This document shows positions 17,472 to 20,754 of a stretch of 64,000 bases of DNA, piece after piece (position 1 is the first letter of the stretch; each line of letters starts with the position of its first letter). The notes under the pieces were generated by a model. It did not search any database and was not told the origin of the DNA. It saw nothing but the letters and a program-made list of their open reading frames with translations. Source of the DNA: an uncultured Bacilli bacterium (GTDB taxonomy: Bacteria; Bacillota_I; Bacilli_A; RF39; UBA660); NCBI GenBank assembly GCA_947629265.1, contig CANRCZ010000001.1, positions 37,344 through 101,343 of the forward strand, read 5' to 3'. A program made the position numbers and the translations under genes.

Positions 17472-18546
17472 ATGAAAGAAAAAATAAGGTTCGGGGGGGG
17501 GGTATTTAATAACGATTTTAATACTATTAGTAGTAACTAATGGTATTACATATGGCGCTAGTCAATATGATAGTAAGAGTGTTAGTTATACCAAAAGTGA
17601 TGGAACAACTGTTACCGTTTCACAGGCCCTAGATGATTTGATTGTTAAATCAAGTAAATCAGGTGGTAACTTTAATATTGAGCTAGCCGAAAGAACCATA
17701 GGAGTAAATTATACAGAAAGCACAGCAGATTATGAGAAAATAATCGATGATTTATTAGGAAAAATAATATCAACAATGGGAGCAACTGCAAAAACAGCAG
17801 AATTGACCTCATTAAAAAATGCAACTTTAACATGGACAAGTCAAGATACTGGAACTGTAAGTATTAGCGGAACAACCGCCAAAGGTGTTAAAGTAGGAAA
17901 GACAACATTAGTAGGATCAGGTGCTGGAAAGCAAGTAACAGTACCAATAAATGTAATATCTGGAGTATATTTGGCAGATAGTGCAATAGCTGTTGGAGAT
18001 TACGTAGCGTATGATGCAGGAACTTGGAGTTCAACTGTTGGTAAACCAACAAGTCATGGAAACTTTGGAGGATATACAAGTGGTAAAAGTAAAAATGAAA
18101 GTGTGTCTTGTGATAATTCATCTACAACATTAAAAGGTTGGAGAGTACTTTCAATAGATAAAAGTAGTAAAAAAGTAACCATAGTGCATGCCGGTCAACC
18201 CGAATGTTACTATCACGGAACTAATCCAAGTGATAGTATATCTAAATTGAATACTAGGGCATATGAACAATATAAAAACACATTTGCAGAGTCAGGACGA
18301 TCAATATCCAAAACCGATGTTGATGCTCTTGGTTCAACTGATACATTACGAAAAACAAGCACATATTACTGGCTGGCTACTGCATTCGGCAGCACTTACT
18401 TGTATTACGTGGGCACTGACGGTAGCATCGGCAGCTACTACAATAGCGTGTATGGTTTCCGCCCGGTGATAGTTCTAAAATCTAGTGTCCTTACTACAGG
18501 TAAAGGAACAGATAGTTATGGAAATTCTGCTTGGAAATTAGCATAG
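17472..18546 (+). CDS. DGR target surface protein (signal peptide, Big_2-like middle domain, C-terminal CLec-like VR domain). It is frameshifted in this sequence at a G10 tract, so a phase-variable gene or an OFF state.
   Basis: ATG at 17472 with a strong RBS reads MKEKIRFGGGGI* and stops. Removing one G restores MKEKIRFGGGYLITILILLVVTNGITYGASQ... in frame with ORF 17638-18546. That N-terminus matches the intact paralog at 22951-23778. The 3' end carries the VR. Confidence 0.75.
17493..17502 (+). repeat. G10 homopolymer tract in signal-peptide codons (candidate slipped-strand phase-variation switch)
   Basis: Ten consecutive G in an AT-rich genome. The frame is restored by -1 G. Confidence 0.7.
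18366..18467 (+). repeat. DGR variable repeat (VR) at the 3' end of the target gene
   Basis: 102 bp aligned to the TR at 19464-19565 with 15 mismatches, all at TR adenines. It ends in the GC-rich 14-mer GGTTTCCGCCCGGT, an IMH-like element. Confidence 0.85.
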
Positions 18547-18563
18547 CTATAATTACACACATT

Positions 18564-18598
18564 TCCGCCCAAGCTAGGCTGAAAGTCGAGCGGGCGGA
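18564..18598 (+). promoter_or_regulatory. GC-rich hairpin 18 nt after the target stop (candidate DGR target-recognition hairpin/cruciform)
   Basis: tccgccc...gggcgga 7-bp GC stem. It is unique to the paralog with a TR-matching VR. The other paralogs end in AT-rich terminators. Confidence 0.5.
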
Positions 18599-18616
18599 CA
18601 ATTATGAGGTTAAAAT

Positions 18617-19063
18617 ATGTCAATGTTGAATGTATATAATGAAATAAAGAAAGTGCATCCAGATTTTGTATTGTTAATAAAATCTGGAACCTTTTATGAA
18701 ATACTAGAAAATGACGCATATGTACTCAGTAATATAAGTGGCTATAAAATAGTAGATAAAACAAATTACCAATTGTGTGGCTTCCCTAGTAATGTACTTG
18801 CAAAAGTAACCAATAAACTAGAACAAAAGAGCATAAATTATATCGTTTTAGATAGTCGTGATAACTACGACGAACTAGAACGATGTGACTACGAAAAATT
18901 AAATAAATACGATCACTACTTAGAAAAAGGAAAAAGAGAAACAAAAAGAAAGAATATAATACAAGAATACAATCAATATTTAGAACAAAATATTGAAAGA
19001 AAATTCATGGATAAACTATTAAAAGATATAGGTAAATTAATTGATAAAACAAGAGAAATTTGA
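18617..19063 (+). CDS. MutS domain I-like (mismatch-binding fold) small protein, DGR accessory candidate
   Basis: VHPDFVLLIKSGTFYEILENDAYVLSNI...LCGFPSNVLAKVTNKLEQ...YIVLD parallels the MutS N-terminus [28 protein letters not shown]...[28 protein letters not shown], including the GxFYE mismatch-contact motif. RBS TGAGGT. Confidence 0.55.
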   Translation: MSMLNVYNEIKKVHPDFVLLIKSGTFYEILENDAYVLSNISGYKIVDKTNYQLCGFPSNVLAKVTNKLEQKSINYIVLDSRDNYDELERCDYEKLNKYDHYLEKGKRETKRKNIIQEYNQYLEQNIERKFMDKLLKDIGKLIDKTREI

Positions 19064-19415
19064 GATAGTAAACCGTATAAAAAGCTTAATAGTTTATCTA
19101 GAAACCAACTTAGAAAATTTTCCTAAAAAAGATTTAGAATTAAAACATAAATTAAACAATGAAATATATGATTTATTAAAAAAATGTTATTTGGCAAATA
19201 ATGCAGTAAATAACGATAGAAAATCAGAATTACAATATGAATTAATAAGCATGGTTAAATATATCGATTTTTTAGTAAATCTATGTTACGAAAAGAAAAT
19301 AATCAATCATAAAAAATATTTGCAGATTGGTGAAAAATTGGATAATATCTTAAAATATATAATAGGGTGGATTAAGTATACTCACAATGCAGAACAACAA
19401 TCCCAAAATATATGA
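19041..19415 (+). CDS. avd: Avd (accessory variability determinant), four-helix-bundle DGR protein
   Basis: 124 aa, helical and basic. IVYLETNLENFPKKD and IGWIKYT parallel the Bordetella phage bAvd ISYLYPIAQSIPRKH and GSWIARV. Sits immediately upstream of the TR. TTG start overlapping the upstream ORF. Confidence 0.65.
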   Translation: MIKQEKFEIVNRIKSLIVYLETNLENFPKKDLELKHKLNNEIYDLLKKCYLANNAVNNDRKSELQYELISMVKYIDFLVNLCYEKKIINHKKYLQIGEKLDNILKYIIGWIKYTHNAEQQSQNI

Positions 19416-19463
19416 TAAGTTATTATATAGATGTATGTAGTATGTAGTATGGGTGTAATACTG

Positions 19464-19565
19464 TAACTGGCTGGCTACTGCAAACAGCAGCACTAACTTG
19501 TATAACGTGAACACTGACGGTAGCATCAACAACAACAACAATAACGTGAATGGTTTCCGCCCGGT
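19464..19565 (+). repeat. DGR template repeat (TR), non-coding, AAC-rich
   Basis: Invariant copy of the VR. Contains (AAC)n and many AAC/AAT codons in the VR frame. Homology to the VR stops after CCCGGT. Confidence 0.85.
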
Positions 19566-19860
19566 CCGGTTGTAGCTCTCTACCAAATTAAGAGTTTAAA
19601 TATTAAAATGACCAAGGTTGTTTTAGTTGTAGCTCTCTAAGGTTCGAGGATAACATGACTAAGGTTATGTATGAGAGAAGTAGAGAACAAGTATTATTCC
19701 TTAGGTAAAACTTAAAATCAAAAAAGATAGCTTTATTTGTTAGTAATGAAAATGAAAGTGAGTAAGCTTAAAGACTTTTTTGACAGAAATAGCGTTTAGT
19801 TGCTATTTTTTGTTATAAGGGGATGACAGTATTAAACGGAAAAATAATCTATATGAAACA

Positions 19861-20754
19861 ATGCTAAATTTTGATAATATTTTAAGTTGTTACAAAGAGG
19901 TAATGCGAAATACTAGAAACAAAAAAGCTGTTTTAAAATACGATAGTTTAAAATGTGTACACATATATGAAATATATAAAATATTAAAAAATAAAAACTA
20001 CAAAATGTCATCATATAACATATTTAAAATATATGAACCTAAAGAAAGAATAATCGTATCACTAAAACTAACCGATAAAATCATAAACCATCTAGTAACT
20101 AGATGCATCCTTATACCATCTATCATACCTATTTTAATTGACCAAAACGTTGCAACAAGACCTAATATGGGGACTAGTAAAGGAATAGAATACTATAAAA
20201 AATATCGTCAACGTTTTAACTATAAATATGGTAAATATTACATACTAAAATGTGACATAAAAAAATATTTCGCTAGTATCAATCATGATATACTAAAACA
20301 AATGTTAAAAAAAGTAATAAAAGATAACGACGCTTTAAATATTATAAATACCATCATCGATAGCTATCCAACCGGTTTAGCAATCGGATCAATGACAAGT
20401 CAGATTTTAGCGATATTTTACTTAAACGATTTTGATCATTATGTAAAAGAACAATTAAAAATAGAGGGTTATATCAGATATCAAGATGATATACTTTTAT
20501 TTCATAATGATAAACAATACTTAGTTGAATGTTTAGAAAAAATAAAAAATTACCTAAACGATAATTTAAAATTAGAACTAAATAATAAAACAAGAATATA
20601 TCATAGTCATGAAAAACTAATATTTATCGGTTATAACAAAAGTAAAGGTAAAATAAACAATAAAAAACATAAAAGAAGAAAAATATACGATAAAGGTTAT
20701 ATAACCTTAAACAGCTACATATCAAGTATTATGAGTTATAATTATATATCATAA
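19861..20754 (+). CDS. DGR reverse transcriptase
   Basis: YEPKERII and ATRPNMGTSKG (compare bRT YEPKPRLI and ACRPDKGTHAG). Motif-4 IGSMTSQ, the DGR hallmark I/LGxxxSQ that replaces QGxxxSP. Catalytic YQDD. Roughly 300 aa. Confidence 0.9.
   Translation: MLNFDNILSCYKEVMRNTRNKKAVLKYDSLKCVHIYEIYKILKNKNYKMSSYNIFKIYEPKERIIVSLKLTDKIINHLVTRCILIPSIIPILIDQNVATRPNMGTSKGIEYYKKYRQRFNYKYGKYYILKCDIKKYFASINHDILKQMLKKVIKDNDALNIINTIIDSYPTGLAIGSMTSQILAIFYLNDFDHYVKEQLKIEGYIRYQDDILLFHNDKQYLVECLEKIKNYLNDNLKLELNNKTRIYHSHEKLIFIGYNKSKGKINNKKHKRRKIYDKGYITLNSYISSIMSYNYIS

Follow-up and report, generated by a model that had tools for sequence, protein, structure and literature searches.

A complete MSL-Avd diversity-generating retroelement in the chromosome of a low-GC gut bacterium, with a candidate poly-G switch in its target gene

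Does a 3.3-kb region in the genome of an uncultured Bacilli bacterium hold a complete diversity-generating retroelement (DGR), and is the surface protein that it diversifies switched on and off as well? The question is raised by positions 17472-20754 of the 64-kb stretch of DNA analysed here (the window; 28% GC), within which all parts of the presumed element lie. The best explanation is that this region is a complete chromosomal DGR of the MSL-Avd class, in a low-GC gut bacterium labelled ‘Bacilli’ or ‘Tenericutes’ by NCBI. Taken as a whole, including retrohoming of the element and poly-G switching of its target, this explanation is given a probability of roughly 0.87. Sequence analysis of the window yields the order target gene, MutS-like (MSL) gene, Avd gene, template repeat (TR), structured spacer RNA and reverse transcriptase (RT) gene. 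The original prediction of a complete DGR with its elements in canonical order is thereby borne out by the open reading frames (ORFs), the protein families and the pair formed by the TR and the variable region (VR) of the target. The elements of the cassette lie on the plus strand, as do the promoter-like, hairpin and poly-G signals described with them. As far as DGR features can be read from a sequence, all are present here, apart from the definition of an initiation of mutagenic homing (IMH) site.

The VR (18366-18467) and the non-coding TR (19464-19565) align without gaps over 102 nt with 15 mismatches, every one of which is at a TR adenine. The pairwise re-alignment thus agrees with the 15 differences, all A to T or G, that had been counted by eye, and contains no non-adenine substitution. 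The TR consists for 33% of A, and 15 of its 34 adenines are changed in the VR (8 A>T, 7 A>G, 0 A>C). The probability that 15 random mismatches would all hit A, with 34 A in 102 positions, is 5.3e-9. In the VR frame the TR holds 12 AAY codons (AAC or AAT), and the mismatches occur only at codon positions 1 or 2, affecting 11 of these 12 codons and one AGC codon; the statement that most differences fall in AAC or AAT codons therefore holds. Likewise, the reported (AAC)6-like run is present in the TR as (AAC)4-AAT-AAC (19527-19544). An independent repeat search of the window recovers the same TR/VR pair, and the VR has a GC content of 53% compared to 37% for the target gene. The spectrum of changes agrees with the observation that dATP is the nucleotide most often misincorporated by bRT, the RT of the Bordetella phage DGR (PMC7826257). 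Since the number of non-adenine mismatches is zero, the sequence suggests that the last homing into the VR was recent, with no detectable drift since.

The homology between both repeats has its 3′ limit in the 14-mer GGTTTCCGCCCGGT, an IMH-like boundary located at 18454-18467 in the VR and at 19552-19565 in the TR. This 14-mer, identical in both copies, had been described as GC-only. It contains 4 T’s next to 10 of 14 G/C (71%) and is adenine-free instead. Immediately past it the flanks of VR and TR are unrelated, and the functional IMH bases are not distinguishable by sequence. The location of the VR in the 3′ part of the target gene is correct, but it does not form the last 102 bp of the gene, as another 79 nt (26 codons) lie between its end and the stop at 18546.

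The target gene (17472-18546) encodes a protein with a signal-anchor N-terminus, a helical and Big_2-like middle part and a C-type-lectin-like C-terminal domain. The C-terminal domain is modelled with a predicted local distance difference test score (pLDDT) of 95-98, and the model matches the structures of the C-terminal domain of Legionella Lcl and of C-type lectins; the predicted fold is thus that of a C-type-lectin/Lcl-like domain. A phmmer search of the target against PDB sequences returned nothing meaningful. Among 67 family members, the most variable columns of the target (>3 bits entropy) are those templated by the AAY codons of the TR, while the framework residues Y294, L296, A297, G312, G323, R325 and P326 are nearly invariant. 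The gene start is less simple than the original prediction, which read the gene from ATG 17472, had assumed. This ATG has a ribosome-binding site and an upstream promoter-like site TTGAAA-17-TATAAT (17410-17438; 11/12 matches in a consensus scan, and a consensus match only), and the VR-bearing frame extends, open, from 17488 up to 18546. Translation from ATG 17472 does not enter this ORF: it is shifted to another frame by a G10 tract at 17493-17502 and meets a stop 22 codons in. A G9 allele would join both frames into a 358-aa protein starting MKEKIRFGGGYLITILILLVV.

The RT gene (19861-20754) encodes 297 amino acids from its ATG and matches Pfam RVT_1 and PHROG 1423 (3.8e-75). All four motifs named in the prediction are present, i.e., IGSMTSQ at amino acids 175-181 (20383-20403), YQDD at 207-210 (20479-20490), YEPKERII at 58-65 and ATRPNMGTSKG at 98-108. 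The [I/V/L]GxxxSQ motif is the signature of DGR RTs in place of QGxxxSP (PMC7826257). The closest solved RT is PDB chain 8ub7 (328 aa; E 3.2e-26, 95.9 bits), and retron-type, group II and Cas-linked RTs follow at 3e-10 or weaker. Chain 8ub7, named by its depositors just ‘Reverse transcriptase’, is taken here to be bRT on account of its length, its IGSLTSQ motif and a residue numbering that agrees with the published R74 and I181. In the alignment, IGSMTSQ of the window falls on IGSLTSQ and R63 falls on R74; the matched sites thus comprise the signature motif and both residues for which promotion of adenine mutagenesis has been shown (PMC7826257). Upstream of the gene, related RTs start with MKRLGNLYE, and the window encodes IKRKNNLYETM in frame before ATG 19861 (19819-19863). 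The Met of the relatives is replaced by an ATT at 19831, which is preceded by AGGGG at 9 nt.

DGRs have been catalogued by many thousands and are especially frequent in gut microbiomes. The RT of the window has more than 2000 homologs at E <1e-10. A set of 80 loci with related RTs, taken from species-representative genomes, comes nearly entirely from gut metagenome-assembled genomes (MAGs) labelled uncultured Bacilli, Tenericutes, Clostridia or ‘Mycoplasma sp. CAG:776’. When each locus is compared with itself, adenine-biased TR/VR-like repeats (at least 80% of mismatches at A) are found in 39 of them, which identifies the clade of this RT as a DGR clade. For the RTs most similar to that of the window (65-74% identity), the contig end falls within the repeat region, 200-1100 nt upstream of the RT. 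The element itself is ordinary, a routine member of a very large clade of gut DGRs.

The 148-, 124- and 297-aa ORFs exist as claimed, and the first of these, which had been left unnamed, is MSL. The MSL gene (18617-19063) encodes a protein of 148 aa with an isoelectric point (pI) of 7.7 that matches Pfam MutS_I with 4.3e-10 and 40.3 bits, compared to a cut-off of 20.6. The Avd gene (19041-19415; 124 aa, pI 8.9) begins with a TTG that overlaps the stop of MSL. The Avd-like character of its product is recognised by three libraries, as it matches the PHROG ‘Avd protein of DGR’ (2.2e-19), NCBIfam DivGenRetAVD (2.2e-12) and Pfam bAvd, and a phmmer search against PDB sequences gave nothing meaningful. 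The MSL-Avd-RT synteny was detected by tblastn in 37 of the 86 fetched loci. Architecture D of Wu et al. (2018) defines the MSL class of DGRs, with a small MutS-like gene and avd and without an HRDC gene (PMC5758913). By family match and gene order, the 148-aa ORF is the known DGR accessory MSL and the cassette is of this published architecture.

The sequence that separates the TR from the RT gene encodes a structured RNA (19626-19784) that is the equivalent of the DGR spacer RNA (Sp). It is composed of hairpin 1, a linker strand (19687-19700) that takes part in a duplex, a short stem-loop (19701-19715) with an A-run after it, and a long 3′ stem-loop that extends to 19784. The one non-tRNA match to Rfam in the window is RT-14, found at 19633-19770 over its full length (model 1-144) with 46.9 bits and E 2e-4 in a scan of 4.5 kb. 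Because Rfam at the gathering threshold found no RT-14 in 15 related loci, a separate covariance model was built, seeded from the RNA of the window and its copies in L081, L084 and L085 (related loci are cited by such numbers where needed). The consensus has three stem-loop elements and a terminal hairpin with a T-run. The model recovers the spacer RNA in five more distant loci (L001, L002, L007, L019 and L040). Wherever a TR was mapped, the spacer RNA is immediately 3′ of it, no matter whether the RT gene is found downstream on the same strand, is found upstream or is encoded by the opposite strand. In 15 distinct sequences, 31 of 40 pairs are changed on both sides and 95.4% of the cells are paired, compared to 42-48% with slid partners, and 0 of 500 shuffles reach the observed values for pairing and covariation. 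RT-1 to RT-19 are RT-associated RNA motifs, and their authors speculated that motifs other than RT-10 serve DGRs (Weinberg et al., 2017). As the RNA of the window and its close relatives all fall below the gathering score of the RT-14 model, this RNA can be read as a diverged RT-14 relative, placed here explicitly as a DGR spacer RNA.

Besides these stem-loops, a duplex of 12-13 bp brackets the TR. It lies outside the covariance model. Its 5′ strand (GGGTGTAATACTGT; 19451-19464), the equivalent of the avd strand of cPRT Stop, is complementary to the 19687-19700 linker between stem-loops 1 and 2 (-11.9 kcal/mol). The complementarity is kept by compensatory change in four sequence types, i.e., the window, L081, the group of L001, L002, L019 and L040, and L007; the four pairs of strands are GGGTGTAATACT/AGTATTATTCC, GGTGTAATATT/AATATTATTCC, GGGCATAGT/ACTATGTCC and GGGATTTA/TAAATTCC. 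In the DGR RNA of the Bordetella phage, studied by cryo-electron microscopy, cPRT Stop is a duplex of 11-13 bp in which the spacer pairs with sequence upstream of the TR. It is followed by a short stem-loop with adenosines, a single-stranded stretch and a long RT-binding stem, while an Avd-binding stem-loop is located just after the TR (10.1101/2023.10.23.563531). To judge from its predicted structure, the RNA of the window has its elements in the same order. An insert of about 60 nt (19566-19625) separates the TR from the main spacer RNA. It is a partial duplicate of the 5′ end of the RNA with a mini-hairpin, so that GTTGTAGCTCTCTA occurs at 19569-19582 and again at 19626-19639. The insert is present in L084 and L085 and absent in L081. 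Two copies of GTTGTAGCTCTCTA are thus available compared to a single TAGAGA strand as pairing partner, an observation that bears on the start of priming. Between the spacer RNA and the RT gene, a small terminator-like hairpin with a T-run (19789-19811) is conserved, with compensatory changes, in L081, L084 and L085; it was not called by a consensus terminator scan.

A second type of structure follows the target gene. In the DGRs of Bordetella and Legionella, recognition of the target requires a hairpin or cruciform. In the window, a GC-rich hairpin without T-run (18564-18600; 7+3+4 bp) follows the target stop at 97 nt past the VR, and its DNA fold has an energy of -10.5 kcal/mol (z -2.6). Strong hairpins are present at the equivalent site after the target in L001, L008, L019, L040, L059 and L066, and three target paralogs within the window end with ordinary AT-rich terminators, not with a GC hairpin. 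By analogy with the known systems, the hairpin is a candidate target-recognition element. Its 5′ arm (18563-18571) repeats TTTCCGCCC of the 14-mer (18456-18464), and its 3′ arm GGGCGGA is able to pair with either copy of TTTCCGCCC. The long-range pairing of the 14-mer with this 3′ arm occurs in the minimum-free-energy fold; with a z of -1.5 it is not significant and no claim is made for it.

Put together, these elements allow a mechanism to be proposed. The TR and the structured RNA 3′ of it would be transcribed, after which the duplex between 19451-19464 and 19687-19700 would loop out the TR and, together with the flanking stem-loops, assemble the RT-Avd ribonucleoprotein. The RT would then prime itself from the spacer and copy the TR to cDNA, misincorporating opposite adenines only. 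This cDNA would replace the VR, with 3′ homing guided by the adenine-free, GC-rich 14-mer and probably also by the GC hairpin after the stop. As an outcome, the 12 AAY-templated codons would be re-randomised, and with them the face by which a C-type-lectin-like surface protein binds its ligand. Seen in the sequence are the adenine-only pattern, the families of the proteins, the covarying structure of the RNA and the target fold, while self-priming, homing and integration of the cDNA and the roles of the hairpin and MSL would follow the Bordetella phage system by homology.

The second half of the question concerns the G10 tract (17493-17502), which occupies codons 8-10 of the target and is a candidate slipped-strand switch, G9 restoring the frame. 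Only two G/C runs of at least 7 are present in the 64-kb window, i.e., this G10 and a G9 at 31718-31726 in a target paralog (ATG 31697, ORF to 32792); the number of G10 runs expected in the window is 5e-4. The G9 occupies the same codons 8-10 in the paralog, for which G8 is the in-frame length. Both tracts are thus one base off their in-frame length, and as assembled neither gene is in frame; the in-frame products (G9 in the target, G8 in the paralog) would be full-length and start with MKEKIR[F/L]GGGYL. The two genes share about 74% nucleotide identity. The G10 is also present in L086, an independently assembled contig. In 837 kb of DNA (the window and the related loci), there are 11 G/C runs of at least 8, of which 8 belong to DGR-target-like genes. 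Six of the 11 precede a VR on its coding strand, and five of the six are within the spacers of TTGACA..TATAAT promoters; two further runs belong to target-like genes, namely that of L051 and the window paralog. In the related loci, G9-G11 tracts lie between the -35 and -10 of promoters of VR-bearing genes or operons (L046:2330-2339, L051:165-174, L059:116-124, L066:69-78, L070:3787-3797 and L048:1-11, the last at a contig start where the -35 side is not seen). The targets of L048 and L051 start with a prepilin-type signal (MKR.GFTLIELLAV). No paper linking DGR targets with homopolymeric phase variation was found in the full-text literature collection searched, a negative limited to that collection. 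The distribution of the tracts suggests that the one at codons 8-10 probably switches the target and one paralog on and off by slippage, on top of the hypervariation by the DGR.

How firmly the whole explanation can be held depends on the alternatives. Could the RT belong to another class, i.e., a group II intron, a retron or an Abi/DRT defence RT, with the 102-nt repeat as an unrelated duplicated gene fragment? The top NCBIfam name for this protein is group_II_RT_mat (TIGR04416), followed by weaker matches to Drt3a and retron_St85_RT; PADLOC RT models match it as well, and an AbiLi-like ATPase gene (20918-22069) adjoins it. The NCBIfam scores, however, are far under the respective cut-offs (86 of 300, 64 of 200 and 49 of 235 bits), the 297-aa protein contains no maturase or endonuclease domain, and no Rfam family for group II intron RNA or retron RNA matched. 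A classification as group II or retron type, which would have counted against the original prediction, is thus not found. IGSMTSQ in place of QGxxxSP, the closest structure (8ub7, taken as bRT), the adenine-only mismatches (P 5e-9) and the 39 other loci that combine homologous RTs with adenine-biased TR/VR pairs make another RT class hardly credible, and the reading as a defence RT with an AbiLi-like neighbour was rejected on the family scores and the TR/VR evidence. A different objection addresses the poly-G tracts, which might be sequencing or assembly errors in homopolymers, or might be fixed and non-switching, with the target expressed constitutively from a G9 allele. Homopolymers are error-prone, both tracts are precisely one base off, and just two assemblies were seen, perhaps from shared reads. 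Against this, the tracts are internal, have unique flanks and are found at the same codon in two diverged paralogs, and runs of at least 8 recur across the 837 kb, six upstream of a VR (five in promoter spacers) and two more belonging to target-like genes. This explanation of the tracts is considered rather unlikely, but it deserves more weight than the previous one.

A number of observations weigh against the DGR explanation as proposed, and several of them would fit a DGR that was recently inactivated or is dormant, with the TR/VR pair recording past homing and the target turned into a pseudogene by the frameshift in its G tract. As assembled, the target is frameshifted, its ATG being out of frame. 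It may not be expressed and could be a pseudogene if the tract is fixed. The sole other copy found (L086, a 1608-nt contig with 2x coverage) aligns with 100% identity, also in the VR and the G10. Variants of the VR were found neither in a JGI metagenome scan with a VR-tolerant pattern (0 matches) nor in the 90% cluster of the target protein, which has one member. Ongoing homing in populations is put forward as a candidate, supported indirectly by the hypervariability of the AAY-templated columns across the family. The RT lacks an ATG at its conserved N-terminus: it may start at ATT 19831 (307 aa) or be N-terminally shortened, and the need for an ATT counts as a difficulty. Other weak points concern the supporting parts rather than activity. 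Avd falls just under curated cut-offs (Pfam bAvd 39.8 vs 40 bits, NCBIfam 47 vs 80), the RT-14 match of 46.9 bits is under the gathering score of 48.1, the alignment used for covariation was fitted to the model, and the partial duplication of about 60 nt sits between the TR and the main RNA. On the other hand, decay would not be expected to leave the RT, Avd and MSL ORFs intact with the catalytic YQDD and the signature residues kept, zero non-adenine mismatches in 102 nt and intact RNA elements. Moreover, the frameshift is located in a poly-G tract that is kept in a paralog with only about 74% nucleotide identity, and tracts of this kind recur at related DGR targets, which has the look of a reversible switch, not of decay. 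Inactivation or dormancy is accordingly regarded as improbable, and a complete DGR with a switchable target remains the preferred reading.

The paralogs and relatives of the target extend this reading. Within the window there are three paralogous genes with a lectin-like C-terminal domain and a VR-like island: 8518-11772 (with a prepilin N-terminus, fn3 and Big_2; island 11589-11690), 31716-32792 (island 32603-32707) and, on the minus strand, 22951-23778 (island 23033-23134). The islands have a GC content of 45-56% compared to 31-37% for the genes, and near-copies of the 14-mer (1-2 mismatches) form their ends. Many of their differences from the TR are at non-adenine positions, and the weak matches at 11621-11690 and 32635-32707 as well as the paralog stretch 23033-23134 were for this reason rejected as second targets of the present TR (non-adenine differences 11 of 23, most of 19, and 40 of 66, respectively). 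No other TR for these islands was found within the window. The islands may be relics of VRs, or TRs located elsewhere in the genome may target them. That multiple TRs can occur in one locus is illustrated by L081 (CANQHO010000030.1), of which the RT is 65% identical. This locus carries a multi-TR array (L081:1-1080 and 2020-2630), in which at least 3.5 units in tandem precede the RT and two more are downstream of it, each unit composed of a TR of about 110 nt, a spacer RNA of about 180 nt and a T-run. As its TRs differ from each other at non-adenine positions too, they are considered distinct templates; VRs for the array were not found on the fetched DNA of that locus.

From these data a broader proposal can be made, tentatively and at slightly less than even odds. 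The DGR targets of this clade would systematically be under poly-G switches, in the coding sequence here and in promoter spacers in the relatives, so that on/off switching and hypervariation are stacked on adhesin-like and pilin-like surface proteins. Multi-TR arrays of the L081 type, with five or more TR-RNA units around a single RT, would presumably provide one TR per paralogous target, and the islands of the window paralogs would be targets of TRs elsewhere, or relics. If true, hypervariable ligand-binding proteins at the surface would be phase-variable as well, which bears on the interactions of these reduced-genome gut bacteria with host, phages and partner cells.

The surroundings of the DGR are chromosomal, with housekeeping neighbours such as RlmN, a PP2C phosphatase, a PASTA kinase, RsgA, Rpe, AddB/AddA, RNase III and a P-type ATPase, and no phage-like genes were seen among the window ORFs scanned. 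The AAA ATPase gene directly 3′ of the RT gene matches PADLOC AbiLi (2.8e-45), Pfam AAA_21 and PHROG 5836; no partner gene was recognised for it, and it is probably an unrelated defence gene. A RhuM-family protein (6397-7425; Pfam 2e-104) is encoded upstream of the pilin-like target paralog, and six clustered tRNA genes are located at 54737-55613.

The value of the locus is that of a clean and compact example, in which MSL and Avd are assembled within 3.3 kb together with a duplex that brackets the TR, a spacer RNA with covariation and a hairpin after the target. Beyond the routine are the poly-G tracts at the target, at one paralog and at related DGR targets, the multi-TR arrays in a relative and the explicit assignment of an RT-14-like RNA to the spacer of a DGR.

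Among known systems, the element is close in outline to the DGR of Bordetella phage BPP-1 (bRT-Avd, with target Mtd). Both have the IGSxTSQ signature, R74 or its equivalent, Avd, adenine-only differences in AAY codons, a VR near the C-terminus of a C-type-lectin-fold protein and an adenine-free, GC-rich 3′ boundary. The order in the spacer RNA, i.e., a stem-loop, a TR-bracketing duplex of about 12 bp, a short stem-loop with adenosines and a long stem, is shared as well. Unlike in BPP-1, the DGR of the window is chromosomal and not phage-borne, includes an extra MSL gene and has a cell-surface target with a poly-G tract. Its 14-mer contains T’s and no distinct IMH/IMH* pair is definable, its hairpin is about 97 nt downstream of the VR, past the stop codon, and the RNA sequences are unrelated (RT-14-like in the window, RT-10 in the phage), with the 60-nt TR-spacer duplication found in the window. 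With the MSL DGRs of architecture D, including that of Legionella pneumophila, the element shares a near-neutral 148-aa MutS_I-like protein (pI 7.7) next to avd, and the C-terminal domain of its target resembles that of Legionella Lcl in predicted structure. It differs from other MSL DGRs in its host, i.e., low-GC gut Bacilli-like MAGs, and in the N-terminus of its target, a signal anchor with Big_2. The spacer RNA resembles Rfam RT-14 in its full-length match, its hairpins and its location adjoining an RT gene, but differs in scoring below the gathering score (46.9 vs 48.1 bits). Poly-G contingency loci with slipped-strand phase variation occur in Campylobacter, Neisseria and Mycoplasma. The tracts described here resemble them as G9-G11 runs that occur, within an AT-rich genome, early in the coding sequence of surface-protein genes or between their promoter hexamers. 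They differ from the known contingency loci in that the switch is a predicted one here, and in that the genes under its control would be the targets of a DGR.

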